Origin: Eledone cirrhosa
Lineage: Eukaryota
Reading direction: 5' to 3'
NCBI GenBank assembly: GCA_964016885.1
Contig: OZ024757.1
Location: 17,918,001 to 17,982,000, forward strand
DNA length: 64,000 nt
Part shown: one piece after another, positions 2,970-42,176 of the stretch
Layout of the letters: every line of letters begins with the position of its first letter
Position numbering within the stretch: the stretch's first letter is position 1
Made by a program: the position numbers and the translations under genes
The notes under the pieces: model-generated
Seen by the model: the letters and a program-made list of their open reading frames with translations, nothing else
Told to the model about the DNA's origin: nothing
Databases searched by the model: none

Positions 2970-3655
2970 TCTGACACAGGAACGATGTACTAGTTCCAAG
3001 CAAACAAACCGAGCATTATAATAAATGTTCGGTAAACCGATACGTGCATATATATATGTGTGCATGTGTATATATATATATATATATATATACACATACT
3101 ACTGTACGTCTGTATACATATATATATGTACGTATACATACATACATACTTACATTTAAGTAAGTGCCGTACTAAGAGTGAGAAATGAAATTTCGTTTCA
3201 TTCTATTCCATTTATCGTTTTCGGTGTGCCCGGCCGACTGAACTCACTCGATATGCAAATTAGGCTGCTCAGCCGTTAATATGCATAAGGAAAGTAAATA
3301 CTTTCAGACGTTCAACCATCTGGCAGGAAGGTATACGATGCTGACGATAGCTAATAAGCTTGAAACTAGTACATCGTTCCTGTGTCAGTGTTGAACAAAA
3401 AGGTGACGTGGTTGCCTAAACACTGTACGGCGTAATTCGAGCTGTTTGTTTGTTTACAAACAAACAAAGCGAGCATTATAATAAATGTTCGGTAAACCGA
3501 TACGTGCATATATATATGTGTGCATGTGTGTATATATATACATACTACTGTACGTCTGTATACATATATGTATGTACGTATACATACATACATACTTACA
3601 TTTAAGTAAGTGCCGTACTAAGAGTGAGAAATGAAATTTCGTTTCATTCTATTCC

Positions 3656-3660
<5 letters not shown>
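2970..3660 (+). mobile_element. Hammerhead-containing A-B-A partial tandem element (unit ~460 bp) with short inverted 5' segment
   Basis: 3001-3213 is repeated at 3461-3660. The hammerhead lies in B. 2971-3001 is the reverse complement of ~3358-3388. The element ends in (TA)n. Confidence 0.75.
3336..3376 (+). ncRNA. Minimal type-I hammerhead ribozyme
   Basis: CGATG-CTGACGA-tAGCT aata AGCTt-GAAAC TA GTA-CATCG: full core, stem I CGATG/CATCG, palindromic stem III ACTAGT. Confidence 0.8.
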
Positions 3661-3697
<37 letters not shown>

Positions 3698-3737
3698 GAT
3701 ATTAACAAATGGAAACTATATTTATAAAACCATATTT

Positions 3738-3800
3738 ATTTCATTATACATATTTCAAGGACACCAAGTTAAATTATGGTGTGCTTTCATCAGATAAAAT
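3738..3800 (-). ncRNA. Type-I hammerhead ribozyme in an inverted pLTR-like segment
   Basis: Minus strand ATTTTAT-CTGATGA-AAGcACACCA..TGGTGTcCTT-GAAAT ATGT ATA-ATGAAAT, followed by AATAAA. Confidence 0.75.
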
Positions 3801-4270
3801 ATAATATAGATCAGTTTTATAAATAAATATTGACATACTCTTAAAGAATGCAACCATTACTGTTGGAAGCTCCCGGAGAGTGGAGTTGTAGCTTTAATTA
3901 TATTATTAGTATTGGATATTTTTAAAATAAGCCGTTGGGTTACGGAGAAAGAGAAAGATAGAGAAGGAAAGAGAGAGAAAGAGCAGAACAACAGAGAGAG
4001 AAAGATAGAGAGAGAGAAAGGAGACAGAGAAAAGGAGATAGAATGAAAAACTCTAAGTCATATCTTGTTGAGTTAACTTAACAATTGAGATGAAATGAAT
4101 AAATAAAATTAGAAATGTTAATAATCATGAATGGAATATACATATATATAATATGAGAAATTTAACCATTGTTTAAATATGATGAGAGGTTTAGTTAATC
4201 AGTTAAATATTGAGATCAATATATTAAAAATTGGGATCTATATATTAAGAAATCCATACATTATTAAAGA

Positions 4271-4465
4271 GGGCGGTGGATTGACAGTATCGGTAGAGGG
4301 TCGGACGCCATGCTTTCCAGCATAGTTACGTCCCTTTACCATCTGAGTTCAAATCCCGCCGAGGTTGACTTTGCCTTTCATCCTTACGGGGTCGATAAAA
4401 TAAAGTACCAGTAATGCACTGGTAATTGCTGGCCTTGTGCCTAAAGTAGAAACAATTATTAAAGA
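4271..4465 (+). mobile_element. tRNA-derived SINE (dominant family of this window)
   Basis: A-box-like head, B-box GAGTTCAAATCCC, core TTTGCCTTTCATCCTTACGGGGTCGATAAAATAAAGTACCAG, (ATT)n tail; target-site duplication TTATTAAAGA on both sides. Confidence 0.9.
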
Positions 4466-5352
4466 TCTAAATATTATATAACACGTATACACACGCAAAA
4501 ATACATACATATAAATATAAATATATATAAATATATATACACACTTATAAAATACATATATATATCTAACTACGTATATAATATATACATACAAAACATA
4601 AAGGATTCTTTAATTTAATTTAAGATATAGGAATCTTATAAACTGTTATAATTGTTAAGATATTAAAGGAAATTTTATGTTATACACACTTCATGTTATT
4701 AAACAAAATTATGTACATGTATGTCAATACACACAAATACATATATACACACATATAGAGAGAAGTATATATAAATACAGTACATAGTATAATTGAGTAC
4801 ATAAAATACAAAAGAATTATATTACGATTTGGAAATATAATTATAAGCAATATAACTTTAAAAACAATATAATTTAAAAATATTATAGAATATCTTAAGT
4901 TATAATTTCAAAATAATAGTATGTTTAATAGATTTAGTATAGAAATTTTCTACTTATATTTAACTTAATTTTATATCCATAAGAGAAATAAACAGAAACT
5001 TTGAAAGGATAAACTTTCGAAAATAGGAGAAGCTATCAGACAATAAAAAATAAAAAATATAAGAAATATTTTCTCCTTTCAAGAGCCCTCAGTATATTTC
5101 TCTAGAATAGTTTATTATATTTAGGAAGAAAAGTTATTTTTATTTGAGTGTATAATCAAATATTTGTTGAGTGCTTTATATCAGTTATAAAAATATTTGC
5201 TTGTTGTATCCCAACAATTTAAATAGAACTTTTACACACACACACACACATATATATATATAGAGTAATAATAATAAATTTGAAGACTAAAATCAATATA
5301 TAAATACTATATATAAATCTATATATAAATACTATATATATATATATATATA

Positions 5353-5556
5353 TAACGAAGGAGATGTGGTAAGGAACCAGATGGACCATAACGCACCAGA
5401 GTACTCAATACTTAGGGTAGTAGAGTGGGTAATATGAAAAAGTATGACCCCGACGGCAGAGCTCAAGCCGTTTCGACGGCTATTTCTGGACGCAAACAGT
5501 CCAGAAATAGCCGTCGAAACGGCCTCAGCTATGCTGTCGGGGTCATACCTTTTCCT

Positions 5557-5557
<1 letters not shown>
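5353..5557. mobile_element. (TA)n-embedded fold-back element, 'TAACGAAGG' family
   Basis: TAACGAAGGA..GTACTCAATACTTAGGGTAG.. followed by hairpin GACCCCGACGGC..TTCTGGAC / GTCCAGAA..GTCGGGGTC. Confidence 0.8.
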
Positions 5558-5650
<93 letters not shown>

Positions 5651-5655
<5 letters not shown>

Positions 5656-6385
5656 GCATACGTCAAGACGGGCGGTCTCAAAAGTGAAACTAATTTTACG
5701 ATTGTGAATTTGTTTGTTTTTTTACAACAGGTCTCAATAGTGAAAGTATAATGCAGACACACGCAATTGTATGGCTTTCTTAATATATATATGTGTGGGT
5801 GTGTATATGTGTGTATATATATGTGTGTGTGTATGTATATATATATATATATATATATGTGTGTTTGTATATATATATATGTGTTTGTATCATCATCATC
5901 GTTTAACGTCTATCTTCCACGCAAGCATGGGTTTAGACGTATATATATGTTTGTGTGTATATATGTGTTTGTGTGTATATATATGTGTGTTTGTGTGTAT
6001 ATATATGTGTCTGTATCTATATATATGTGTATGTGGCCACATATATATACACACAAACACACATATATATACACACAAACACATATATACACACAAACAT
6101 ATATATACGTCTAAACCCATGCTTGCGTGGAAGATAGACGTTAAACGATGATGATGACACAAACACATATATATATATACAAACACACATATATATATAT
6201 ATATACATACACACACACATATATATACACACATATACACACCCGCACATATATATATATTAAGAAATCCATACAATTGCGTGTGTCTGCATTATACTTT
6301 CACCTGTTGTAAAAAAACAAACAAATTCACAATCGTAAAATTAGTTTCTCTTTATTGAGACCGTCCGTCTTGCCGTATGCCACAT
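5651..6385. repeat. ~735-bp imperfect inverted duplication centred on GTGGCCAC (6033-6040)
   Basis: ATGTGGCATACG...ATCATCATCGTTTAACG on the left is mirrored by CGTTAAACGATGATGA...CGTATGCCACAT on the right; the arms differ by a few substitutions and one indel. Confidence 0.9.
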
Positions 6386-6734
6386 ATATATATATATATA
6401 TATATATAAACATGTACAGATACAAAGCGTATACACATGCACACATACAACTAAAAAAAAACACATCCACACATACAATAACATCCACACCTACACACAC
6501 ATGCAGACATATCTACCTAGTTGATGTTGTGTAAATTTCAATGAGAGAGTCTTGTGTCTTTGTTAGAAACCGGTTCTCTCTCTATTGGTAACATTTGTGA
6601 AATTATAAAACCAGAAGAATATACATACTTACAAATATACATATATACATACAAACATACATACATACACACGTACATAAATACATACACAGACATACAT
6701 ACATATATATACATTCTTCTCCCCATTTTTTCAC

Positions 6735-6774
<40 letters not shown>

Positions 6775-7145
6775 ATAAATGCGTACATTTATATACATAC
6801 ATATATATGTATATATTTACATACATATATATACATATATATGTATATATTTACATACATATATATACATATATATGTATATATATACATATATATATGT
6901 ATATATTTACATACATATATATACATATATATGTATATATTTACATACATATATATACATATATATGTATATATATACATATATATACATATATATGTAT
7001 ATATTTACATACATATATATACATATATATACATATATATATACATATATATATGTATATATTTACATACATATATATACATATATATGTATATATTTAC
7101 ATACATATATATACATATATATACACATATATATATGTATATATT

Positions 7146-7195
<50 letters not shown>

Positions 7196-7211
7196 TATAC
7201 ATATATATATA

Positions 7212-7590
7212 TAACAAAGAAGGTGTGGTAAGATACCAGGTGGACTATAACGCACCAGAGTACTCAATACTTAGGGTAGTAGAGTGGGTCCTAGGAAAAG
7301 AGTAGGGACCCCGGCGGCTGTGCTCCGGCTGTTTCGACAGCTAGATCCAAACTAGGGTTCGGATCTAGCTGTCGAAACGGCCACAGCTCAGCCGTGGGGG
7401 TTCTGATTCATTCCCTACACACACACACACACACACGCACCGCACATATATATATGTATTTAAACAGCAGGAGCTCAGCCGTTGGGGTCCTGGATTTTTT
7501 TCACATATATGCATTTATTTATATGTGAAAAAAATCCAGGACCCCAACGGCTGAGCTCCTGCTGTTTCAACAGCTAGATCCGAACTAAAG
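7212..7590. mobile_element. TAACGAAGG-family fold-back element plus a second nested hairpin
   Basis: Hairpin ~7305-7405 (GTTTCGACAGCTAGATCC / GGATCTAGCTGTCGAAAC) and hairpin ~7462-7567. Confidence 0.75.
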
Positions 7591-7764
7591 CTGGTTTAGT
7601 GTTGCTTTACCCCGATAGATGTCTTGAATTATCTAGTTTTATTACACAGATGGCGGCAAGGCATAGGGGATAAGGGGTTAGACAGAAAGCTAGGAGAAAG
7701 TGGGTGACTAGACCTATTGATCTGAAGATAATAAGCTTGTTAGTAGAGCACACACACATTTGCT

Positions 7765-8342
7765 ACTTTATTTTATCGACCCCATAAGGATGAAAGGCAA
7801 AGTTAACCTTAATGGGATTTGGACTCAGACCGTAAAGGGCCGTAACTCTATGCTGCAAAGCATGGCGTTCGACCCTCTTCCGATACTGCCAATAATAATT
7901 GTTTCTACTTTTGGCACAAGGCCAGCAATTACCCAGTGCATTACTGGTACTTTAATTTATCGACCTCGTAAATAATAATTGTTTCTACTTTTGGCACAAG
8001 GCCAGCAATTATCCCAGTGCATTACTGGTACTTTAATTTATCGACCCCGTAAATAATAATTATTTCTACTTTTGGCACAAGGCCAGCAATTATCCCAGTG
8101 CATTACTGGTACTTTATTTTATCGACCCCGTAAGGATGAAAGGCAAAGTTAACCTCGGCGGGATTTGAACTCAGAATGGCAAGGGCCGTAACTCTATGCG
8201 TCAAAGCATGGCGTCCGACCCTCTACCGATACTGCCAATCCACCGCCCAGTAAATAATAATTGTTTCTACATTAGGCACAAGGCCAGCAATCACCCAGTG
8301 CATTACTGGTACTTTATTTTATCGACCCCAGTAAATAATAAT
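7765..8342 (-). mobile_element. Cluster of tRNA-SINE copies with tandemly reiterated 3' ends
   Basis: AATAATTGTTTCTACTTTTGGCACAAGGCCAGCAATT..GGTACTTT occurs four times (~7893, 7973, 8053, 8253), together with two SINE heads. Confidence 0.85.
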
Positions 8343-8658
8343 GAAACCAGATCTTACCTACAGAGACTTTTAACACCCATTTTAAACTCTCCTCTCCTTT
8401 TAGCTGTTCGACAGTTTTGTTTTCTTGTTGGTCCTCTGCTAAAAAATGTCCGTGTTTGGTGTGTGTACATATGTATGTATATACATAGGCATATATATAT
8501 ATTGTCCCAATACCTTTATTTAGCTATTGCTCGCACCAACTGGAGGTATATGATTTTTAAAGCGATGAAATACCAATGAAGGTTGGAAAATCATTGATAA
8601 AGGACTAACTTTATTCATATGTAACCCATTTGCAAACATGCAGTATTCTATTCTCATG

Positions 8659-8715
<57 letters not shown>

Positions 8716-9073
8716 CGTATGTGTGAAAGTATGTTAGGTGTATCGTCGACAAGGTTGTAGAAAAGACTAAATTGATTTTTAGAATTTGTAGTTAATCTGA
8801 AAAAAAAAAAAAAAAAAATACATCATCAACAACAACAACAACAACAACAACAACAACTTTGGGATAAACACCAATAAGTGAACTTTAAACAATGATAGTT
8901 AAGTACTTACATATCTGTATAGCAACAGCCTGCGAATGTTTCAAGACAACAACAGCAACAACAGTAACAGTAACAACAACAACAACAACAGCAACAGTAA
9001 CAACAACAACAACAACAACAACAATATCAACAACCACATGAATAATTCTAATTAAAATAACTTAAATATGTAC

Positions 9074-9109
<36 letters not shown>

Positions 9110-9156
9110 AAATGTATATACGTATGTATGTGTATATGTATATACGTATGTTATGT

Positions 9157-9753
9157 CAGGTCACCAGTTGGTGCTACTGGTAACATGTATCCCAGTACAA
9201 CCTGTCTCATGGTCGGGTCGTTGGCGACTAAACTGGCAACCCCACCAAGGTTTCTTGGTGAGGAGGGTGACTTTGGACAAACCCTTGGACAAACCTGTCA
9301 AAGGGCAAAGGAGCTCTTAAGAGTCAATGGCCATCCAAAATCACTGGGAGAGATGACCCCTTAGCCTTTGTCAAGGCAGAATTCTAGGAGAAGGAAAACT
9401 CTGATATAACACCTGCAACCCTGATGGTATCCAATGATGTTGACTTGTTCTTCTTTTTGGTAAATATCATCTTGGTTAAGAGAGTGGGACTGGCTTTGTG
9501 CAGTGCCTTTGCTCACTATAAAAGCTTAACGGCACAGGCATTGCTTTATATCTGGAGATCTCTCTGCACTTGCCGTCACATGGTACCATGGACCCAGCAC
9601 TGTGTCAATAATTGTCACAAGTGTTGTGTTTGTACCAGAGTTTTCAAGTCGCTGGCTGGACTAAAAATTCACACTCGTTCAGCGCATCGGTAGGGGTTCT
9701 CCTACATGGATATAAAGTAGTGGCCGTACTCGAAAACGAGTTGGCAGCCACCA
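9157..9753 (+). mobile_element. Non-autonomous RTE-related element (5'UTR-like part joined to a zinc-finger-encoding 3' end)
   Basis: CTAGGAGAAGGAAAACTCTGA 5' motif. The 3' part encodes Cxx[15 protein letters not shown]. Related pieces at ~11200-11430, 26630-26730(-), 33430-33655(-), 45745-45847 and 53415-53548. Confidence 0.6.
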
Positions 9754-9891
9754 TATACGTATGTATGTATATATGTATATATGTATATATGTAAGTATAT
9801 ATGTATATATGTATGTATATATGTATGTATGTGTATATGTATGTATATATGTATGTATGTATGTATATATGTGTATATGCATGTATGTATG

Positions 9892-9931
<40 letters not shown>

Positions 9932-9962
9932 TAGATAGTTACATAACGAGGAGCACGCGGAC

Positions 9963-9997
<35 letters not shown>

Positions 9998-10136
9998 GCA
10001 TGTATGTATATATATGTATGTATGTACGTGTATATGCATATATGTATGTATATATGTATATATGTATATATGTATATATATATATATATACATACATACA
10101 TACATATATACATATATACATACATATATGCATATA

Positions 10137-10189
<53 letters not shown>

Positions 10190-10235
10190 TATGGAATACT
10201 GTTGGCTTTTCGCTACAATGTTTTCTATACCTTTC

Positions 10236-10279
<44 letters not shown>

Positions 10280-10478
10280 AGAGAGATCAGAGCAAACAAC
10301 ACGGACACTCTATCTCAAAATTATTTTTGAAAAGCATTTAGAAATGCGCAACCGGTAAAAACTTAAAAACTTAAAACCACAACTGAATACTAACCCATAC
10401 AATCACTAATACTCTTTTATTCCTAATTAAACCATTTTTCAACTGTGAACAATTTGTCAGCATTTTCTATTCCGTTTA

Positions 10479-10561
<83 letters not shown>

Positions 10562-10563
<2 letters not shown>

Positions 10564-11018
10564 GATATTAATAAATGGAAACTATATTTATAAAACCATA
10601 TTTATTTCATTATAAATATTTCAGGGATACCGCATTAAATTATGGTATGCCTTCATCAGACAAAATACAATATATAACAGTTTTACAAATAGGTTTGACG
10701 TACCCTTTAAAATACAACCATTACTTTTGGAGGCTGTCTGGATAGACTATCCAGACAGCCTCCAAAAGTAATGGTTGTATTTTAAAGGGTACGTCAAAGG
10801 TTATTTATAAAACTGTTATATATTGTATTTTGTCTGATGAAGGCATACCATAATTTAATGTGGTATCCCTGAAATATTTATAATGAAATAAATATGGTTT
10901 TATAAATATAGTTTCCATTTATTAATATCGTATATCTACTCCAAAAATTTGTCGAGTGCTTTATATCAGTTATAAAAATATTTACTTGTTGTATCCCAAC
11001 AACTTTAAATAGAACCTT

Positions 11019-11020
<2 letters not shown>
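10562..11020. mobile_element. Fold-back pLTR-like element with two opposite-strand hammerheads and a ~90-nt tail
   Basis: 10562-10745 is inverted at ~10747-10932. HHR(-) at 10604-10666 and HHR(+) at 10827-10889 (ATTTTGT-CTGATGA-AGGcATACCA..TGGTATcCCT-GAAAT ATTT ATA-ATGAAAT). The tail GAGTGCTTTATATCAGTTATAAA also occurs at ~5169, with a variant at ~32530. Flanked by (TA)n. Confidence 0.85.
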
Positions 11021-11102
<82 letters not shown>

Positions 11103-11761
11103 TATATATTCATGTATGTATGTATATGCATGTGTGCATGTGTATGTATATGTGCGGGGACATAGAAATAGTAGGGCTGGACACCCGATCGCGCGGTTAA
11201 ACCACTGGGATGAAGGACCCCTAACCTTTGTCAGGGCATTCTTCTAGGAGAAGGCAACTCAGGAAACTGGGATAACTCCGATATAAAACCTGCGGCTCTG
11301 TAGTTACCGATGATGTTGATCTTTTCTTCTTTTCGGGTTATAGCTACTGTCACTCAGAGAGTGGGATTGGCTCAGTGCACAGTCTTTCCTCACTTTAAAA
11401 AATATCTTCACGCACAGGCATTGCACGATAGAATTAATTGATAATGATTAATAATGGTATATCATGCAATGGCCATACTCGATAACGAGGGGGCAGCCAT
11501 CATGTATGTATATATGTATGTATATATGTATATATGTATACGGCCGCCGTTGATGGGTTAGTTTAAATGTGTGCTGCTTCTGTAGTGGGAGAGCCCCGAC
11601 GACTTCAGAGGTGAAGGGACTGGTGATGATGATGATCATGTATATATATGTATATGAGTATATGTCTGTGTATGTGTGTTTACGTATGTATATATGTATG
11701 AGTGTATGTATGTGTCTATGTATATATGTATATGTGTGTATGTATGTGTGTATATGTATTA

Positions 11762-11958
11762 TTGGTGGATTGGCAGTATCGGTAGAGGGTCGCACGCCAT
11801 CTTTCCATCATAGTTACGTCCCTTTACGATCTGAGTTCAAATCCCGCCGAGGTTGACTTTGCCTTTCATCCTTACGGGCTCGATAAAATAAAGTACCAGT
11901 AATGCACTGGTGAATTGCTGTCCTTGTGCCTAAAGTAGAAACAATTATTATTATTATT
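11762..11958 (+). mobile_element. tRNA-derived SINE
   Basis: Same family as 4271-4465. Confidence 0.85.
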
Positions 11959-12320
11959 GTCGTTATTATGTTTTTTTTTCTTCTTTTTCGTGCAATGGCC
12001 ATCCTCGATAACGAGGGCGCAGCCATTATGTATATGTATGTATATGTATATATGTATATATAGGTGGATGGAATTACTGATAAATAATTCCACATACACT
12101 TATGCACACATACATACATACATATACATACACTCATACATAAAAAGACATACCTACAGACACATACATCCACACACACATACATACACAGCCATACATA
12201 CACACATACATTGGTATATCGTTGGTAAGCCATGGCTACGAAAAATACTTAATACCGCTTATAATTATGAAAGGAAACTAACAGAGAGAAAATACCCATA
12301 CATACATGCACATACACACC

Positions 12321-12372
<52 letters not shown>

Positions 12373-12376
12373 CATA

Positions 12377-12423
<47 letters not shown>

Positions 12424-12426
<3 letters not shown>

Positions 12427-12637
12427 ACGAAGGAGGTGTGGTAAGGAACCAGATGGACCAGAACGCACCAGAGTATTCAATACTTAGGGTAGTAGATGGG
12501 TAATAGGAAAATGTTTAACCCCGACGGCAGAGCTCAAGCCGTTTCGACGGTTATTTCTGGACAGAAATAGCCGTCCAGAAATAACCATCGAAATGGCCTG
12601 AGCTCTGCCGTCGGGGTTAAACATTTTCCTTTATATA

Positions 12638-12728
<91 letters not shown>

Positions 12729-12919
12729 CGAAGGAAATGTGGTAAGGAACCAGGTGGACCATAACACACCAAAGTACTCAATACTTGAGGTAGTAGAGTG
12801 GGTAATAGGAACCAGTAAGACCCCGACAGCTGAGCTCAAGCCGTTTCGACGGCTAATTCTGAGTCCAGAATTAGCCGTCGAAACGGCTTGAGCTCAGCTG
12901 TCGGGGTCTTACTGGTTCC

Positions 12920-12961
<42 letters not shown>

Positions 12962-13060
12962 TATATATAGATATAGGAAAAAGTATGACCCTGACGGCAG
13001 AGCTCAAGCCGTTTCGACGCCTATTTCTGGACTAAAAAGAGGGTAGTAGAGTCGGTAATA
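12424..13060. mobile_element. Three clustered TAACGAAGG-family fold-back elements
   Basis: Copies at ~12424-12632, 12726-12920 and 12972-13060, separated by (TA)n/(TG)n; the first two end in near-perfect hairpins. Confidence 0.8.
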
Positions 13061-13182
13061 TGAACAAGTGTTCTGTTATTAATTCTGGCAATATTATTAC
13101 ACAAATATGACCCTCCCCAAGTATAACAATATTTGTTTCGACACACGATTTCATATAAAAAACCTCGCAAAACTAATTCATC

Positions 13183-13284
13183 GCCGCCGAGGTTAACTTT
13201 GCCTTTCATCCTTACGGGGTCGATAAAATAAAGTACCAGTAATGCACTGGGTATTTGCTGGCCTTGTGCCAAACGTAGAAACAG

Positions 13285-13287
<3 letters not shown>
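13183..13287 (+). mobile_element. 5'-truncated tRNA-SINE
   Basis: Core and tail of the 4271 family. Confidence 0.8.
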
Positions 13288-13333
<46 letters not shown>

Positions 13334-13866
13334 GTGTGTGTGTGTGTGTGTGTGGAGGTAGGGGTGTTGTGTGGATGAGATGAGGATTATATCAGATGTC
13401 ATCGTTTTACTGATCCCCAACTGAATCCTAATCTGACTCGCCGTATCACTAAATCTTATCTGCTAAACTCTGGCTTAGTTAGACGAGTGGTTAAAGCGTT
13501 AGCTCCGCAAACCGTGCGCTTCTCGCTTTCATGAGACTTTTCGTTTCATTTCTCTATTTCTTCCTGTCTCTTCCCTTTAATAGCGTGTTTTGCTTTTATA
13601 AGTTACCGTTCAATTACCTATACCAAAGGTTCTCAACGGGGGGCATATGCACCCCTGGGGGCGTTTCGGAACTCCAGGGGACGTTTGGGAGCAAGGTTGC
13701 GTTAGGGGGGGGGGGCATTTAGAGCTAGGGGAGGGGGGTCAGGCTGGGTGGGGGTGGGGTGGAAGGCTCTTTATTTTGGTAAGTTTTATAAGCCATATTT
13801 GTATGTATTTGAGACAACCAGTGTGAATGCATTTGAATGAGTTTGCATAACTATAGTCCAAGTTCA

Positions 13867-14504
13867 CCAAGTGAAAAAACTTGGTACATCTACATATGTA
13901 TACGTGTGTGTATTCATATACATACTAGTATTTCAGTATACATATATGGATGTACATCTTTAACTTAATTGTTTAAGCGTCAGTCATACAAAAGTGAGTT
14001 ACAAACGAAACGAAATTTAATTTCGTTTCGTTATTTGTTTTTATCGTCTCCGTTGAACCGGTACTTACTCACACTCTATGCAAATTAGTCTGCCCACTAC
14101 TAATTTTCATAGAAAAAGCATATAACGATATGTGCTTTTACGATTCTCTAGAGAGGCCGGAAGATAGGTAAATATTGCTGATGAGTTGTAACAACAACGA
14201 AACTAGTTCAATATTCCTTGTCTGGCTTTCTGGAGAATAGAGGAAAGGTGTTTCCTCAAAAACCAGTATGACTCTAAAAACCGGTTTGTCTGTGTGTTTA
14301 CATACAGAATAGCTGGCCACTCACAGTAAAGTGACCAGTGAAAAAACTTGGTACATCTACATATGTATACGTGTGTGTATTCATATACATACTAGTATTT
14401 CAGTATACATATATGGATGTACATCTTTAACTTAATTGTTTAAGCGTCAGTCATACAAAAGTGAGTTACAAACGAAACGAAATTTAATTTCGTTTCGTTA
14501 TTTG

Positions 14505-14510
<6 letters not shown>
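13867..14510 (+). mobile_element. Second hammerhead-containing A-B-A partial tandem element (unit ~467 bp)
   Basis: 13871-14043 is repeated at 14338-14510. B shares ACTCAC..TATGCAAATTAG with the 2970-3660 element. Ends in (TA)n. Confidence 0.75.
14171..14215 (+). ncRNA. Minimal type-I hammerhead ribozyme
   Basis: AATATTG-CTGATGA-GTTGT aaca ACAAC-GAAAC TA GTT-CAATATT: 7-bp stem I, 5-bp stem II, palindromic AACTAGTT. Confidence 0.85.
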
Positions 14511-14563
<53 letters not shown>

Positions 14564-14605
14564 GAAAGGTATAGGAAACATTGTAGCAAAAGCCAACAGT
14601 ATTCC

Positions 14606-14699
<94 letters not shown>

Positions 14700-14710
14700 G
14701 GAATACTGTT

Positions 14711-15897
14711 GGCTTCAGAGAGGGTAGATCAACCACCAGTCACATCCTGATGCTGAGGAGGATATTAGAGGGAGCTAGAGCAAAGTGCCTTCCTGCGGTC
14801 ATGGTTTTCATTGACTTTAGGAAGGCCTTTGATTCTGTGGACCGTTACTGCCTGATGAAGATCTTACAGGCTTATGGAATCCCCAAGAGGATAGTGGACC
14901 TGATATCACTGCTCTACACCAACACCAAAGCCCAAGTCATTACACCTGATGGGATGACAGAGTTCTTTGAGATACTGGCTGGAGTGCTCCAGGGAGATAC
15001 ATTGGCTCCCTACCTTTTTGTCATCGTAGTGGACTATTGTATGCGCCTTGCACTGGAGAAACACCAGGACTCTGGCTTTACTGTGGCACCGGCTCAGAGC
15101 AGGAGAGTTGGGGCGAAAAAGGTATCGGATGCTGAATTTGCCGACGACATAGTTTTGGTGACAGATACAGTGAAGGAGGCAGAGGATTTGATGCGGGAGG
15201 TTGAGACTGTGTCGATGAGTGTGGGGCTGAGAATGAATGAGACTAAAACAAAATATCTGGTGGAGAATGTTGAGAAGCCAGAGGGGATCACTAATGTAGG
15301 CGGGAAGCCGCTGGAATTGGTTGAGGACTTCCTGTATTTGGGAGCAAAGATTGGGAATACGGAGGATGATGTGGTTGAGAGGAAGAGCAAGGCCTGGGCG
15401 GCGTGCCACAGCTTGAGATCGGTGTGGAAGTCGGACCTTCGTAGAGACCTGAAAATCCGCCTCTTCATTGCTGTAGTGGAGTCTGTGCTGCTGTGTGGGT
15501 CTGAGACTTGGACACTGACCAAGAAACTCACTCAGATGGTGGATGGGTGCTACACGAGAATGCTGAGGATGGCTCTGAACATTAATCAGTATACACTGAG
15601 GATGAAAAACTCAGAGCTGTATGGGAGCATCCCAAAAGTCAGCTCAAAAGTGACACAGAGGAGACTGAGGTTGGCTGGACATGCTCACCGGCATCCAGAG
15701 TTGACATTGCACTCAGTGCTCCTTTGGGAGCCCCTACATGGACACACTGGAAGAGGAAGACCAAGGTTAACATATGTTGATGCCCTAAGGACAGACACTG
15801 GTCTGTTGGAGATGCAGGATATGGCAGCGATAATGAGGGACAGAGACCGCTGGAGAGAACTCGTCCATGGATCTCGGGAATTTTACCCGCCTTAGAT

Positions 15898-16425: not shown

Positions 16426-16494
<69 letters not shown>

Positions 16495-16496
<2 letters not shown>

Positions 16497-16700
16497 AAAA
16501 ATATTAATAAATGAAAAATATTCTTATAACAAAAATATATATTTTATTATACATATTTCAAAGGTACAATGGTGTTTAAGTATGTTTTCATCAGACAAAA
16601 TATAATATTTGATATGCGACATATCGCTACGGTTTGGATTATTCTATTCCAGTATTGGAATTGAATAATCAAAACCGTAGCGGTATGTCACATATCAAAT
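16495..16700 (-). mobile_element. pLTR-like segment with a degenerate hammerhead (16541-16601) followed by a ~95-bp hairpin
   Basis: Minus strand ATTTTGT-CTGATGA..GAAAT ATGT ATA-ATAAAAT; hairpin ATTTGATATG..CATATCAAAT at 16607-16700. Confidence 0.65.
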
Positions 16701-16759
16701 CTCTCATATATTTATGTGTGTATGTGACTTATAAGGCCTAACGTACGTAACGAACACGT

Positions 16760-16869
<110 letters not shown>

Positions 16870-27335: not shown

Positions 27336-29142
27336 TACAGTAACTGTTATTTATGATATAACTACATATTAAATCTAATGGTTAGAGTAACTGTTATTTA
27401 TGATATAACTACATATTAAATCTAATAGTTAGAGTAACTGTTATTTATGATATAACTACATATTAGATATAATAGTTAGAGTAACTGTTATTTATGATAT
27501 AACTACATATTAAATCTAATAGTTAGAGTAACTGTTATTTATGATATAACTACATATTAAATCTAATAGCTAGAGTAACTGTTATTTATGATATAACTAC
27601 ATATTAAATCTAATAGTTAGAGTAACTGTTATGATATAACTACATATTAGATATAATAGTTAGAGTAACTGTTATTTATGATATAACTACATATTAAATC
27701 TAATAGTTAGAGTAACTGTTATTTATGATATAACTACATATTAAATCTAATAGTTAGAGTAACTGTTATTTATGATATAACTACATATTAAATCTAATAG
27801 TTAGAGTAACTGTTATGATATAACTACATATTAGATATAATAGTTAGAGTAACTGTTATTTATGATATAACTACATATTAAATCTAATAGTTAGAGTAAC
27901 TGTTATGATATAACTACATATTAGATATAATAGTTAGAGTAACTGTTATTTATGATATAACTACATATTAGATATAATAGTTAGAGTAACTGTTATTTAT
28001 GATATAACTACATATTAAATCTAATAGTTAGAGTAACTGTTATTTATGATATAACTACATATTAAATCTAATAGTTAGAGTAACTGTTATGATATAACTA
28101 CATATTAGATATAATAATTAGAATAACTGTTATTTATGATATAACTACATATTAGATATAATAGTTACAGTAACTGTTATGATGTAACTACATACTAAAT
28201 ATAATAGTTACAGTAACTGTTATGATGTAACTACATACTAAATATAATAATTACAGTAACTGTTATGATGTAACTACATACTAAATATAATAGTTACAGT
28301 AACTGTTATGATGTAACTACATACTAAATATAATAGTTACAGTAACTGTTATGATGTAACTACATACTAAATATAATAGTTACAGTAACTGTTATGATAT
28401 AACTACATACTAAATATAATAGTTAGAGTAACTGTTATGATGTAACTACATACTAAATCTAATAGTTACAGTAACTGTTATGATGTAACTACATACTAAA
28501 TATAATAGTTACAGTAATTGTTATGATGTAACTACATACTAAATCTAATAGTTACAGTAACTGTTATGATATAACTACATACTAAATATAATAATTACAG
28601 TAACTGTTATGATGTAACTACATACTAAATATAATAGTTACAGTAACTGTTATGATGTAACTACATACTAAATATAATAGTTACAGTAACTGTTATGATG
28701 TAACTACATACTAAATATAATAGTTACAGTAACTGTTATGATATAACTACATACTAAATATAATAGTTAGAGTAACTGTTATGATGTAACTACATACTAA
28801 ATCTAATAGTTACAGTAACTGTTATGATGTAACTACATACTAAATATAATAGTTACAGTAATTGTTATGATGTAACTACATACTAAATATAATAGTTACA
28901 GTAACTGTTATGATGTAACTACATACTAAATATAATAGTTACAGTAATTGTTATGATGTAACTACATACTAAATATAATAGTTAGAGTAACTGTTATGAT
29001 GTAACTACATACTAAATATAATAGTTACAGTAATTGTTATGATGTAACTACATACTAAATATAATAGTTACAGTAACTGTTATGATGTAACTACATACTA
29101 AATATAATAGTTACAGTAACTGTTATGATGTAACTACATATG
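27336..29142. repeat. 47/43-bp AT-rich satellite in intron 2
   Basis: AGTAACTGTTATTTATGATATAACTACATATTAAATCTAATAGTTAG, grading into a 43-bp variant. Confidence 0.95.
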
Positions 29143-36770: not shown

Positions 36771-39700
36771 GAATGTCATAGTCGTAAGAACGTCAGATAG
36801 AATGCCATAGTCGTAAGAACCTCAGATAGAATGTCATAGTCGTAAGAACGTCAGATAGAATGTCATAGTCGTAAGAACGTCAGATAGAATGTCATAGTCA
36901 TAAGAACCTCAGATAGAATGTCATAGTCTTAAGAACGTCAGATAGAATGCCATAGTCGTAAGAACGTCAGATAGAATGTCATAGTCATAAGAACCTCAGA
37001 TAGAATGTCATAGTCGTAAGAACGTCAGATAGAATGCCATAGTCGTAAGAACGTCAGATAGAATGCCATAGTCGTAAGAACCTCAGAGAGAATGTCATAG
37101 TCGTAAGAACGTCAGATAGAATGCCATAGTCGTAAGAACGTCAGATAGAATGCCATAGTCGTAAGAACCTCAGATAGAATGCCATAGTCGTAAGAACCTC
37201 AGAGAGAATGTCATAGTCGTAAGAACCTCAGATAGAATGCCATAGTCGTAAGAACGTCAAATAGAATGCCATAGTCGTAAGAACGTCAGATAGAATGTCA
37301 TAGTCGTAAGAACGTCAGATAGAATGTCATAGTCGTAAGAACCTCAGATAGAATGCCATAGTCGTAAGAACGTCAGAGAGAATGTCATAGTCGTAAGAAC
37401 GTCAGATAGAATGCCATAGTCGAAAGAACCTCAGATAGAATGCCATAGTCGTAAGAACCTCAGAGAGAATGTCATAGTCGTAAGAACGTCAGATAGAATG
37501 CCATAGTCGTAAGAACGTCAGATAGAATGTCATAGTCGTAAGAACCTCAGATAGAATGTCATAGTCGTAAGAACCTCAGATAGAATGCCATAGTCGTAAG
37601 AACCTCAGAGAGAATGTCATAGTCGTAAGAACCTCAGAGAGAATGTCATAGTCGTAAGAACCTCAGAGAGAATGCCATAGTCGTAAGAACCTCAGATAGA
37701 ATGTCATAGTCGTAAGAACGTCAGATAGAATGTCATAGTCGTAAGAACGTCAGATAGAATGCCATAGTCGTAAGACGTCAGATAGAATGCCATAGTCGTA
37801 AGAACGTCAGATAGAATGCCATAGTCGTAAGAACGTCAGATAGAATGTCATAGTCGTAAGACGTCAGATAGAATGCCATAGTCGTAAGAACCTCAGAGAG
37901 AATGTCATAGTCGTAAGAACGTCAGATAGAATGTCATAGTCGTAAGAACGTCAGATAGAATGCCATAGTCGTAAGAACCTCAGAGAGAATGTCATAGTCG
38001 TAAGAACATCAGATAGAATGCCATAGTCGTAAGAACGTCAGATAGAATGTCATAGTCGTAAGAACGTCAGATAGAATGCCATAGTCGTAAGAACCTCAGA
38101 TAGAATGCCATAGTCGTAAGAACCTCAGAGAGAATGCCATAGTCGTAAGAACCTCAGAGAGAATGCCATAGTCGTAAGAACCTCAGATAGAATGTCATAG
38201 TCGTAAGAACCTCAGATAGAATGTCATAGTCGTAAGAACGTCAGAGAGAATGTCATAGTCGTAAGAACGTCAGATAGAATGTCATAGTCGTAAGAACGTC
38301 AGATAGAATGTCACAGTCGTAAGTAAGAACGTAAGATAGAATGTCGTAGTCGTAAGAACGTCAGATAGAATATCATAGTCGTAAGTAAGAACGTCAGATA
38401 GAATGTCATAGTCGTAAGAACGTCAGATAGAATGCCATAGTCGTAAGAACGTCAGATAGAATGTCATAGTCGTAAGAACGTCAGATAGAATGTCACAGTC
38501 GTAAGTAAGAACGTCAGATAGAACATCATAGTCGTAAGTAAGAACGTCAGATAGAATGTCATAGTCGTAAGAACGTCAGATAGAATATCATAGTCGTAAG
38601 AACGTCAGATAGAATGTCATAGTCGTAAGAACGTCAGATAGAATGTCACAGTCGTAAGTAAGAACATCAGATAGAATATCATAGTCGTAAGTAAGAACAT
38701 CAGATAGAATGTCGTAGTCGTAAGAACGTCAGATAGAATATCATAGTCGTAAGTAAGAACGTCAGATAGAATATCATAGTCGTAAGTAAGAACGTCAGAT
38801 AGAATATCATAGTCGTAAGTAAGAACGTCAGATAGAATATCATAGTCGTAAGAACCTCAGAGAGAATGCCATAGTCGTAAGAACGTCAGATAGAATACCA
38901 TAGTCGTAAGAACCTCAGAGAGAATGTCATAGTCGTAAGAACGTCAGATAGAATGCCATAGTCGTAAGAACGTCAGATAGAATGTCACAGTCGTAAGTAA
39001 GAACGTAAGATAGAATGTCGTAGTCGTAAGAACGTCAGATAGAATGTCATAGTCGTAAGTAAGAACGTCAGATAGAATGCCGTAGTCGTAAGAACGTCAG
39101 ATAGAATATCATAGTCGTAAGTAAGAACGTCAGATAGAATGTCGTAGTCGTAAGAACGTCAGATAGAATGTCATAGTCGTAAGTAAGAACGTCAGATAGA
39201 ATGTCATAGTCGTAAGAACGTCAGATAGAATGTCATAGTCGTAAGAACGTCAGATAGAATGTCATAGTCGTAAGAACGTCAGATAGAATGTCATAGTCGT
39301 AATAACGTCAGATAGAATATTATAGTCGTAAGAACGTCAGATAGAATGTCACAGTCGTAAGTAAGAACATCAGATAGAATATCATAGTCGTAAGTAAGAA
39401 CATCAGATAGAATGTCGTAGTCGTAAGAACGTCAGATAGAATGTCATAGTCGTAAGAACGTCAGATAGAATGTCACAGTCGTAAGTAAGAACATCAGATA
39501 GAATATCATAGTCGTAAGTAAGAACATCAGATAGAATGTCGTAGTCGTAAGAACGTCAGATAGAATGTCATAGTCGTAAGAACGTCAGATAGAATGTCAC
39601 AGTCGTAAGTAAGAACATCAGATAGAATATCATAGTCGTAAGTAAGAACATCAGATAGAATGTCGTAGTCGTAAGAACGTCAGATAGAATGTCATAGTCG

Positions 39701-42176
39701 TAAGAACGTCAGATAGAATGTCACAGTCGTAAGTAAGAACATCAGATAGAATATCATAGTCGTAAGTAAGAACATCAGATAGAATGTCGTAGTCGTAAGA
39801 ACGTCAGATAGAATGTCATAGTCGTAAGAACGTCAGATAGAATGTCACAGTCGTAAGTAAGAACATCAGATAGAATATCATAGTCGTAAGTAAGAACATC
39901 AGATAGAATGTCGTAGTCGTAAGAACGTCAGATAGAATGTCATAGTCGTAAGTAAGAACATCAGATAGAATGTCGTAGTCGTAAGAACGTCAGATAGAAT
40001 GTCATAGTCGTAAGAACGTCAGATAGAATGTCACAGTCGTAAGTAAGAACATCAGATAGAATATCATAGTCGTAAGTAAGAACGTCAGATAGAATGTCAT
40101 AGTCGTAAGAACGTCAGATAGAATGCCATAGTCGTAAGAACCTCAGATAGAATGCCATAGTCGTAAGAACCTCAGAGAGAATGCCATAGTCGTAAGAACC
40201 TCAGAGAGAATGCCATAGTCGTAAGAACCTCAGATAGAATGTCATAGTCGTAAGAACCTCAGATAGAATGTCATAGTCGTAAGAACGTCAGAGAGAATGT
40301 CATAGTCGTAAGAACGTCAGATAGAATGTCATAGTCGTAAGAACGTCAGATAGAATGTCACAGTCGTAAGTAAGAACGTAAGATAGAATGTCGTAGTCGT
40401 AAGAACGTCAGATAGAATATCATAGTCGTAAGTAAGAACGTCAGATAGAATGTCATAGTCGTAAGAACGTCAGATAGAATGCCATAGTCGTAAGAACGTC
40501 AGATAGAATGTCATAGTCGTAAGAACGTCAGATAGAATGTCACAGTCGTAAGTAAGAACGTCAGATAGAATATCATAGTCGTAAGTAAGAACGTCAGATA
40601 GAATGTCATAGTCGTAAGAACGTCAGATAGAATATCATAGTCGTAAGAACGTCAGATAGAATGTCATAGTCGTAAGAACGTCAGATAGAATGTCACAGTC
40701 GTAAGTAAGAACATCAGATAGAATATCATAGTCGTAAGTAAGAACATCAGATAGAATGTCGTAGTCGTAAGAACGTCAGATAGAATATCATAGTCGTAAG
40801 TAAGAACGTCAGATAGAATATCATAGTCGTAAGTAAGAACGTCAGATAGAATATCATAGTCGTAAGTAAGAACGTCAGATAGAATATCATAGTCGTAAGA
40901 ACCTCAGAGAGAATGCCATAGTCGTAAGAACGTCAGATAGAATACCATAGTCGTAAGAACCTCAGAGAGAATGTCATAGTCGTAAGAACGTCAGATAGAA
41001 TGCTATAGTCGTAAGAACGTCAGATAGAATGTCACAGTCGTAAGTAAGAACGTAAGATAGAATGTCGTAGTCGTAAGAACGTCAGATAGAATGTCATAGT
41101 CGTAAGTAAGAACGTCAGATAGAATGCCGTAGTCGTAAGAACGTCAGATAGAATATCATAGTCGTAAGTAAGAACGTCAGATAGAATGTCGTAGTCGTAA
41201 GAACGTCAGATAGAATGTCATAGTCGTAAGTAAGAACGTCAGATAGAATGTCATAGTCGTAAGAACGTCAGATAGAATGTCATAGTCGTAAGAACGTCAG
41301 ATAGAATGTCATAGTCGTAAGAACGTCAGATAGAATGTCATAGTCGTAATAACGTCAGATAGAATATTATAGTCGTAAGAACGTCAGATAGAATGTCACA
41401 GTCGTAAGTAAGAACATCAGATAGAATATCATAGTCGTAAGTAAGAACATCAGATAGAATGTCGTAGTCGTAAGAACGTCAGATAGAATGTCATAGTCGT
41501 AAGAACGTCAGATAGAATGTCACAGTCGTAAGTAAGAACATCAGATAGAATATCATAGTCGTAAGTAAGAACATCAGATAGAATGTCGTAGTCGTAAGAA
41601 CGTCAGATAGAATGTCATAGTCGTAAGTAAGAACGTCAGATAGAATGTCACAGTCGTAAGTAAGAACATCAGATAGAATATCATAGTCGTAAGTAAGAAC
41701 ATCAGATAGAATGTCGTAGTCGTAAGAACGTCAGATAGAATGTCATAGTCGTAAGAACGTCAGATAGAATGTCACAGTCGTAAGTAAGAACATCAGATAG
41801 AATATCATAGTCGTAAGTAAGAACATCAGATAGAATGTCGTAGTCGTAAGAACGTCAGATAGAATGTCATAGTCGTAAGAACGTCAGATAGAATGTCACA
41901 GTCGTAAGTAAGAACATCAGATAGAATATCATAGTCGTAAGTAAGAACATCAGATAGAATGTCGTAGTCGTAAGAACGTCAGATAGAATGTCATAGTCGT
42001 AAGTAAGAACATCAGATAGAATGTCGTAGTCGTAAGAACGTCAGATAGAATGTCATAGTCGTAAGAACGTCAGATAGAATGTCACAGTCGTAAGTAAGAA
42101 CATCAGATAGAATATCATAGTCGTAAGTAAGAACGTCAGATAGAATGTCATAGTCGTAAGAACGTCAGATAGAATG
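36771..42176. repeat. 29/33-bp satellite (~5.4 kb) in intron 6
   Basis: Unit GAATGTCATAGTCGTAAGAACGTCAGATA, with a +TAAG variant; runs directly into a SINE body at 42176-42290. Confidence 0.95.

Follow-up and report, generated by a model that had tools for sequence, protein, structure and literature searches.

Hammerhead repeats in a cephalopod genome: non-LTR retrozymes with two-armed, tail-bounded insertions and an A>G record suggestive of ADAR-edited circular templates

Non-long-terminal-repeat (non-LTR) retrozymes, reported from coral, mussel and axolotl, are non-coding units arranged in tandem, each carrying a single type I hammerhead, with a low GC content (<50%) and a highly self-paired predicted circle; they co-occur with Penelope-like elements (PLEs), and mobilisation by PLEs from circles has been proposed for them (Cervera and de la Pena 2020, PMC7229834). 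Their units measure 150–450 bp in that work and 51–972 in a 2026 preprint (Li et al. 2026, bioRxiv 10.64898/2026.07.22.740005), which ties retrozymes to pseudo-LTRs (pLTRs) in Xenopus from a mollusc-free sampling. Here we analyse a 64,000-nucleotide (nt) stretch of Eledone cirrhosa DNA (contig OZ024757.1, positions 17,918,001 to 17,982,000; hereafter the window) that carries two elements, E1 and E2, with all of these features and with units at or just over the 150–450 bp range. As high-copy, protein-free hammerhead repeats, they are in all likelihood non-LTR retrozymes carried by PLEs. Their insertions and their variants further point, at a probability of roughly 0.7, to ADAR-edited monomer circles that would be reverse-transcribed by a Penelope-type enzyme, the edits thereby becoming heritable.

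The retrozyme class is already known, and existing repeat catalogues may include E1 and E2; what is added is their insertion anatomy and editing record. In the accessible sections of the retrozyme papers, PLE mobilisation and rolling-circle reverse transcription are proposed only, and no tail ends, one-site-per-arm inverted insertions or DNA-fixed edits are described, whereas the first two, and variants that read as the third, are present here. Cephalopods are unmentioned in the main texts of the retrozyme literature examined, whose supplements could list families. In a search confined largely to open-access literature, we found no paper in which retrozyme or PLE retrotransposition fixes ADAR edits, and no account of hammerhead retroelements in octopus.

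The hemocyanin genes of the 3.0-Gb assembly that holds the window are of coleoid type: they are molluscan genes with seven consecutive units, the number typical of octopods, and one unit reaches 600–606 bits against 4yd9_C, 6r83 and 1js8, which are squid and octopus proteins, and no more than 461 against the remaining entries. The two elements comprise the following features. Unless a contig is named, positions are those of the window; locus numbers (L) denote loci in the 3.0-Gb assembly G000, and C numbers its contigs.

2971–3001, minus strand: remnant inverted arm of E1, 31 nt over the cleavage site, reverse complement of 3358–3388
2994–3661, plus strand: E1 main arm, 1.5 units of 446 nt (A 2994–3215, B 3216–3453, A' 3454–3661)
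3252–3287, plus strand: E1 hairpin; its 5' arm holds the octamer ATGCAAAT (3253–3260) and the TAG adenosine 3262, which is G in some copies
3330–3380, plus strand: E1 type I hammerhead (core CTGACGA 3341–3347, ACTAGT 3365–3370, predicted cut after 3371)
3604–3661, plus strand: E1 'tail' hairpin module, site 1 (~3604) to site 2 (3661), from arm ends at 71 loci
3659–3696, no strand: (TA)n target at the E1 3' end
13870–14511, plus strand: E2 single arm, 1.4 units of 467 nt (A 13870–14044 = 14337–14511)
14077–14111, plus strand: E2 hairpin, with the octamer (14078–14085) and the A>G hot spot TAG 14087 (unit position 346)
14164–14218, plus strand: E2 type I hammerhead (core CTGATGA 14178–14184, ACTAGT 14202–14207, predicted cut after 14208)
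14437–14511, plus strand: E2 'tail' hairpin module, site 1 (14437–14442) to site 2 (14511), from arm ends of 86 insertions
14509–14560, no strand: (TA)n target at the E2 3' end

An earlier note on this stretch had proposed one family of two diverged elements with a common architecture, and the architecture is borne out. In particular, TTTCGTTTC lies in a hairpin of each element (3191 and 3637 in E1, 14021 and 14488 in E2), the octamer starts at 3253 and 14078, the hammerhead core lies 88 nt (E1) or 100 nt (E2) past it, where about 90 had been given, and the palindromic ACTAGT (starting at 3365 and 14202) is common to both. Both window copies stop at an equivalent 3' site on (TA)n, and neither encodes a protein: the longest ATG frames are 75 and 30 amino acids (aa), and no open reading frame (ORF) for reverse transcriptase (RT) plus GIY-YIG was found in either unit among the frames and protein matches checked. 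GC content is 38% in E1 and 35% in E2. The single family does not survive. The same series of modules is kept at low identity, 295 of 478 columns (62%) when the monomers are opened at the predicted cut site, and judged on this alignment E1 and E2 are two sister families.

The repeat layout was half right. In E2 the A segments are 100% identical at a period of 467, as claimed; in E1, where the A copies are 91% alike, the apparent spacing of 460 results from 14 surplus nt of (TA) in the first A copy, and the unit is 446 nt. The stretch from 2970 had also been counted into the direct repeat of E1, and 2971–3001 in fact lies outside it as an inverted arm (96.8% identical to the reverse complement of 3358–3388). 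As judged against other F3 copies, this arm meets its neighbour, a copy of a third hammerhead family that we call F3 (2706–2976; 1,308 candidates, 40 scored), at a 6-nt CTGACA microhomology, and it was likely left by a later deletion.

Both hammerheads have the core and three stems (in E2, stem I 14171–14177/14209–14215 and stem II 14185–14189/14194–14198). Exact copies number 1,723 for E1 (41 nt) and 4,843 for E2 (45 nt) genome-wide, against 0 for a reversed-pattern control, and subfamilies reach down to 80–88% identity. Rfam gives a sub-threshold match to Hammerhead_HH9 for E2 (E 2.9e-8; 37.7 bits, under the 52-bit cut-off) and no hammerhead match for E1; its miRNA and snoRNA matches were dismissed as microsatellite or chance. 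Across 20 representatives, stem I and II cells are paired in 89.5% of cases versus 31–41% in slid controls, and seven pairs of these stems are altered on both sides, so that the claim of stems differing in sequence yet keeping their pairing largely stands. It fails at the base of E1 stem II, where an unpaired T.T occurs in all 42 listed hammerheads (L001–L030) except one with G.T. This T.T parallels the U.U at the helix II base of axolotl HHR_Amex2, a hammerhead that cleaves nonetheless and works better in dimeric form (PMC7229834); among Xenopus elements, 1 of 9 predicted ones cleaved (bioRxiv 10.64898/2026.07.22.740005). Dimer folds through ACTAGT are predicted to be favourable. Predicted circular folds have z scores of −7.4 (E1) and −12.3 (E2) against 40 dinucleotide shuffles each and contain a similar series of hairpins in the two families. 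In the octamer hairpin, the octamer arm is nearly fixed and 0 of 12 pairs are altered on both sides.

To describe the insertions, we mapped the arms of 86 E2 insertions (the first matches on C1) and 71 E1 loci (the 30 best matches plus the first matches on C1). L201 and L177 (no arm at 85%/45 nt) and L218 (a duplicate of L217) were left out, L143 was merged into L142, and L208 was split in two. The insertions reveal partial tandems with an inverted 5' arm, a microsatellite target and a tail at one end only. The 3' arm ends fall at two sites around the hairpin (135 of 142 in E2, at unit positions 228–234 and 302–304; 102 of 122 in E1, at ~221–240 and 283–290) and lie mostly on (TA)n, and the 5' ends are scattered; exact E2 site-2/(TA) junctions number 1,908 genome-wide. 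The two sites are mostly used once each. Specifically, 50 of the 55 two-armed E2 insertions have one site per arm, one has site 1 twice, none has site 2 twice, and the other four have an end elsewhere or beyond the fetched stretch. At loci chosen for a site-2 end alone, the partner arm ends at site 1 in 35 of 38 and at site 2 in 0. The 38 E1 arm pairs comprise 24 with one site each, two with the same site twice and 12 with an end elsewhere. Because the ends sit in (TA)n, target-site duplications, which in retrozymes are, when present, >4 bp, are not readable.

This anatomy is close to that of endonuclease-bearing (EN+) PLEs (Neptune clade; PAc/Poseidon), which likewise have partial tandems, an inverted 5' arm, two priming sites, microsatellite targets, a hammerhead in the repeat and a tail at one end only (PMC8557442). 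Purified PLE primes at both tail-bounding sites and elongates each of the two DNA strands, and a dimer is its predicted form (PMC11167929); one tail site per arm matches two internal priming sites, two-strand cleavage and such a dimer. E1 and E2 differ from EN+ PLEs in having no RT or endonuclease, a tail of 57–70 nt rather than 30–40, a repeat that is the whole element, and no sequence link to an autonomous family at the 50 GIY-YIG loci inspected. A parallel as passengers is found in non-autonomous Chlamys elements such as MRC1, which are carried by PLEs and have multicopy head-to-tail insertions; these resemble the 3' ends of their autonomous partners, belong to a clade without canonical hammerheads, and have no editing record described in the accessible text (PMC8557442). 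The earlier proposal of a non-autonomous element, present in more-than-unit-length copies and mobilised by a Penelope RT/GIY-YIG, thus gains support from arrays, inverted arms, two tail ends, covarying hammerhead stems and the lack of an ORF.

Candidate enzymes are present in the genome, where 10,597 GIY-YIG candidates were found and 150 scored. [quoted passage not shown] It belongs with L093, L094, L097, L107 and L109 to at least six Neptune-type PLE families of this domain order that end on (TA)n, the clade being assigned from the cysteine linker motif; several of these families have atypical hammerhead variants with a palindromic ACCGGT or AGTACT. A full-length PLE with the same terminus as E1 and E2, which the earlier note had envisaged, was sought by blastn and nhmmer: none of the 50 GIY-YIG loci inspected carries an E-like terminal repeat on an autonomous element, and a search via long-ORF loci also found no autonomous partner. 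Two apparent leads were rejected. L118 and L119, 4.2 kb apart and considered as two pLTRs, in fact form a higher-order repeat of 9 units. The RT frame adjacent to E2 comes from a LINE fragment that lacks GIY-YIG. This 5'-truncated fragment of a long interspersed nuclear element (LINE; 14590–15895, plus strand; open RVT_1 frame 14699–15892) adjoins E2 and has a short inverted duplication around (TA)n at its 5' end.

The units might alternatively be mere pLTRs of a 5'-truncated autonomous PLE, an explanation to which we give hardly any credence. The autonomous PLEs of this genome do share the tail, the inverted arms, the (TA)n target and palindromic-stem hammerheads, and the 50 candidates inspected are a small part of 10,597. 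It is opposed by head-to-tail units without an ORF in arrays of >20 units, by E-like sequence that occurs near the inspected GIY-YIG loci as separate insertions only, and by the variant-hammerhead loci: a variant pattern gave 308 matches, of which 30 were fetched (26 E1/E2 variants and 4 unrelated), and none of these 30 had a PLE protein match.

Unit lengths are 446 nt in E1 and 465–470 nt in E2, and E2 arrays reach 13+7 letter-identical units, others exceeding 20 units. In L141 the two arms together hold 18 full monomers, every one the same and with 4 differences from the window unit; L142/143, L144 and L146 are clonal in the same way, each with its own variants. The window E2 monomer is itself identical to the major unit of L145. 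Two long older arrays were noted in addition, the E2-type L158 (C1:95.64–95.65 Mb) and an E1-type array at C3:12.272–12.294 Mb with >35 units of variable period. Single units might alternatively retrotranspose and the arrays then grow at the DNA level like satellites (bioRxiv 10.64898/2026.07.22.740005). The 9-unit higher-order repeat of L158 has that appearance, as do the long arrays L202, L230 and L256, in which variants occur in some units only. As an origin of the arrays we regard this as very improbable: opposite arms have the same private variants and length type, each with an exact tail end, and in the youngest arrays the units match letter for letter. Some arrays are probably subject to turnover at the DNA level afterwards.

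The second line of evidence is the variants, which we divided into those present in all copies of one insertion (shared, attributed to the template) and those of single units (attributed to later mutation), after masking the microsatellite-like hairpin, arm ends and indel flanks; two of the 86 E2 insertions had too few neighbours for this spectrum, and the tree is built without 12 of the 86 because of their shortness. The 87 shared E2 variants include 43 A>G against 11 T>C (p 1.5e-5), with 6 G>A and 7 C>T, whereas the 253 single-unit variants include 27 A>G and 24 T>C (p 0.45), with 53 G>A and 33 C>T. A 5' G precedes 0 of 43 shared A>G versus 9 of 27 single-unit A>G; against a background of 18% this avoidance has p 1.6e-4, or 0.003 on 28 distinct positions. 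At least one shared A>G occurs in 25 of 84 E2 insertions, two of which have seven, with clusters of 7, 7 and 3 per unit (p about 1e-4), and 25 shared A>G are present on both arms. The TAG adenosine at unit position 346, unaltered in the window E2 copy (14087), has become G in 8 of the 74 insertions on the tree, which requires at least seven separate origins. Such changes are all, or most, of what separates L252, L223/L232 and L141 from relatives otherwise identical to them. Genome-wide, the 35-nt E2 hairpin has 5,043 exact matches, 6,938 when A>G is allowed and 5,083 when T>C is allowed; 1,895 units are altered by A>G only and 40 by T>C only, or 412 versus 40 minus the hot spot. The E1 hairpin gives 4,905 (A>G) against 4,555 (T>C), again an excess of A>G genome-wide, and the homologous E1 TAG is altered in 4 of 100 matches listed.

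ADAR favours a 5' T and a 3' G and avoids a 5' G (PMC3091650), a context that the E2 variants fit, and adenosine deaminase genes are present in the genome. A UAG hot spot in a hairpin, with 5' G avoided, is likewise seen at the amber/W site of hepatitis delta virus (HDV) and in ADAR-edited Alu RNA (PMC3091650); there the edits are confined to RNA or to a virus's RNA genome, whereas those of E2 would sit in host chromosomes. Editing was raised once in the accessible retrozyme text, as a possible source of RNA heterogeneity (PMC7229834). On the pattern of these variants we consider an ADAR origin of the A>G changes very probable. The alternative that E1 and E2 are retrozymes with a skew due to founder lineages, transcription-associated DNA damage or polymerase error is quite improbable. 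It draws on the single site that gives 1,483 of the 1,895 units, on lineages with A>G in common (the period-469 and period-468 types) and on an unskewed E1 sample. Against it stand at least seven independent hot-spot origins, absence of a 5' G and clusters of seven; single-strand DNA damage would give C>T over G>A, which stand at 7 versus 6 among shared variants; and RT errors are not expected in separately primed arms, where 25 cases are shared.

The variants also bear on the form of the template. The five-change hairpin of L223 occurs in four units genome-wide, all within L223 and on both arms and strands, as expected if two enzymes repeatedly read one edited monomer, and L224 has seven A>G common to its three units. 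Judged on such patterns, a monomer circle is the probable template. The competing template is linear, a transcript that reads through several units of an existing array and is used by the same Penelope enzyme, with hammerhead and circles playing a minor part. Uncleaved RNA is the main in vitro substrate of purified PLE (PMC11167929), the T.T weakens E1 stem II, L147 has two alternating unit types, and other arrays with the L141 variant are possible sources. With a linear template, edits should vary between units, contrary to L223, whose five changes are genome-unique and in all four units, and to L224; the core and stems, moreover, are kept across subfamilies. We regard it as unlikely.

Taken together, these observations suggest the following course for circle-templated spread. 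E1 and E2 would be transcribed, and their RNA would self-cleave, perhaps as dimers through ACTAGT, and be ligated into 446- and 467-nt circles, which would be A-to-I edited by ADAR. A Penelope-like RT/GIY-YIG enzyme, likely of the Neptune clade, would bind the tail hairpin and cut both strands of a (TA)n microsatellite; a dimer of it would prime once on each side of the tail of the same RNA molecule, and the circle would be reverse-transcribed round and round into the microsatellite, yielding two outward-facing arms whose cDNAs are joined at random 5' points. Inosine is copied as G, so edits would become part of the germline genome, and certain edited copies may found new lineages. The E1 and E2 copies of the window are short, unedited products of this proposed process.

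Several observations weigh against this account. The PAc hammerhead is dispensable in vitro (PMC11167929), no autonomous partner was found in the loci inspected, and the covariation of the stems mostly reflects the split between E1 and E2, an equal count of double-changed pairs arising in 273 of 500 shuffles. Some arrays are not simple copies of one monomer: besides the alternation in L147 and the higher-order repeat of L158, the minus arm of L142 has one A>G (unit position 111) in 6 of 10 units with a 3-unit rhythm, and the other arm is without it. The editing record has its own weak points. The 1,483 hairpin units that include position 346 are units, not independent events; shared A>G are not all independent, falling at 28 distinct positions; the 25 variants unique to one insertion include just 9 A>G versus 3 T>C; the 71-locus E1 sample has 4 A>G versus 5 T>C; and A>G sites lie in predicted pairs in 17 of 25 cases versus 73 of 123 for background, with no clear enrichment. 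The three-change variant of L141 occurs at seven loci, and L141 alone is therefore no proof of a circular or monomeric template.

That same variant shows an E2 lineage in which three A>G changes destroy the octamer. Its hairpin is found in 71 units, spaced at ~468 where a locus has several, at the following loci of G000:

C1:30.83 Mb, 85.3 Mb and 322.55 Mb: octamer-less E2 lineage
C6:54.09 Mb: octamer-less E2 lineage
C18:30.95 Mb: octamer-less E2 lineage
C410 and C744: octamer-less E2 lineage

Edited forms can thus spread further, whether from a source copy or, as could also be the case, from one long-lived RNA circle. Since a lineage without it is present at seven loci, the perfect octamer is not essential for spread, which weakens the octamer as an essential promoter and leaves a helper role conceivable. 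Newt satellite 2, also a tandem hammerhead repeat, has a small nuclear RNA (snRNA)-type octamer promoter; here, by contrast, octamer-less lineages still spread. Non-LTR retrozymes seem promoter-less in the accessible text of PMC7761336, whereas the octamer is conserved in three hammerhead families of this genome. The third of these, F3, has E-style tail ends on (TA)n, inverted arms and tandem ATGCAAAT octamers upstream of its hammerhead, >15 of them in L276.

The window holds other repeats. A fourth hammerhead family, in which stem II is long and stem III AT-rich and which also lies on (TA)n, occurs at 3697–3940 (minus strand), 10563–11020 (two-armed) and 16460–16760 (minus strand). MITE-like hairpins, 43-bp and 29-bp satellites and an 81-bp repeat of abundant SINE-like sequence (miniature inverted-repeat transposable elements and short interspersed nuclear elements, respectively) occupy 12510–12625 and 12887–13008; 27351–29140; 36771–42176; and 7891–8133. 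Beyond the assembly, E2 sequence is present in runs X1, X4, X5 and X6 (organisms A–D) at very different depths, and one contig spans the tandem joint; no RNA data set was among those listed for it.

The spread of retrozymes by a circle and a PLE enzyme has been proposed, not shown, in the accessible parts of the literature examined. Each insertion described here is a footprint: either arm has its own priming site, the units of the two arms are identical, and private marks recur in every unit. The footprint names a substrate (the tail hairpin on a 446- or 467-nt circle), a target ((TA)n) and candidate enzymes (the Neptune-type ORFs). The insertion anatomy and the editing record therefore make retrozyme mobilisation directly testable.

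Coleoid cephalopods are a lineage known for heavy RNA editing, and the E2 variants suggest that this editing feeds into the germline genome. The broader view, that cephalopod retrozyme circles turn ADAR edits into heritable DNA and that the elements evolve largely by RNA editing, we hold with somewhat better than even confidence. If it is true, thousands of insertions would record, molecule by molecule, both germline editing and rolling-circle reverse transcription, and the A>G signature would offer a sequence-only readout of germline ADAR activity.

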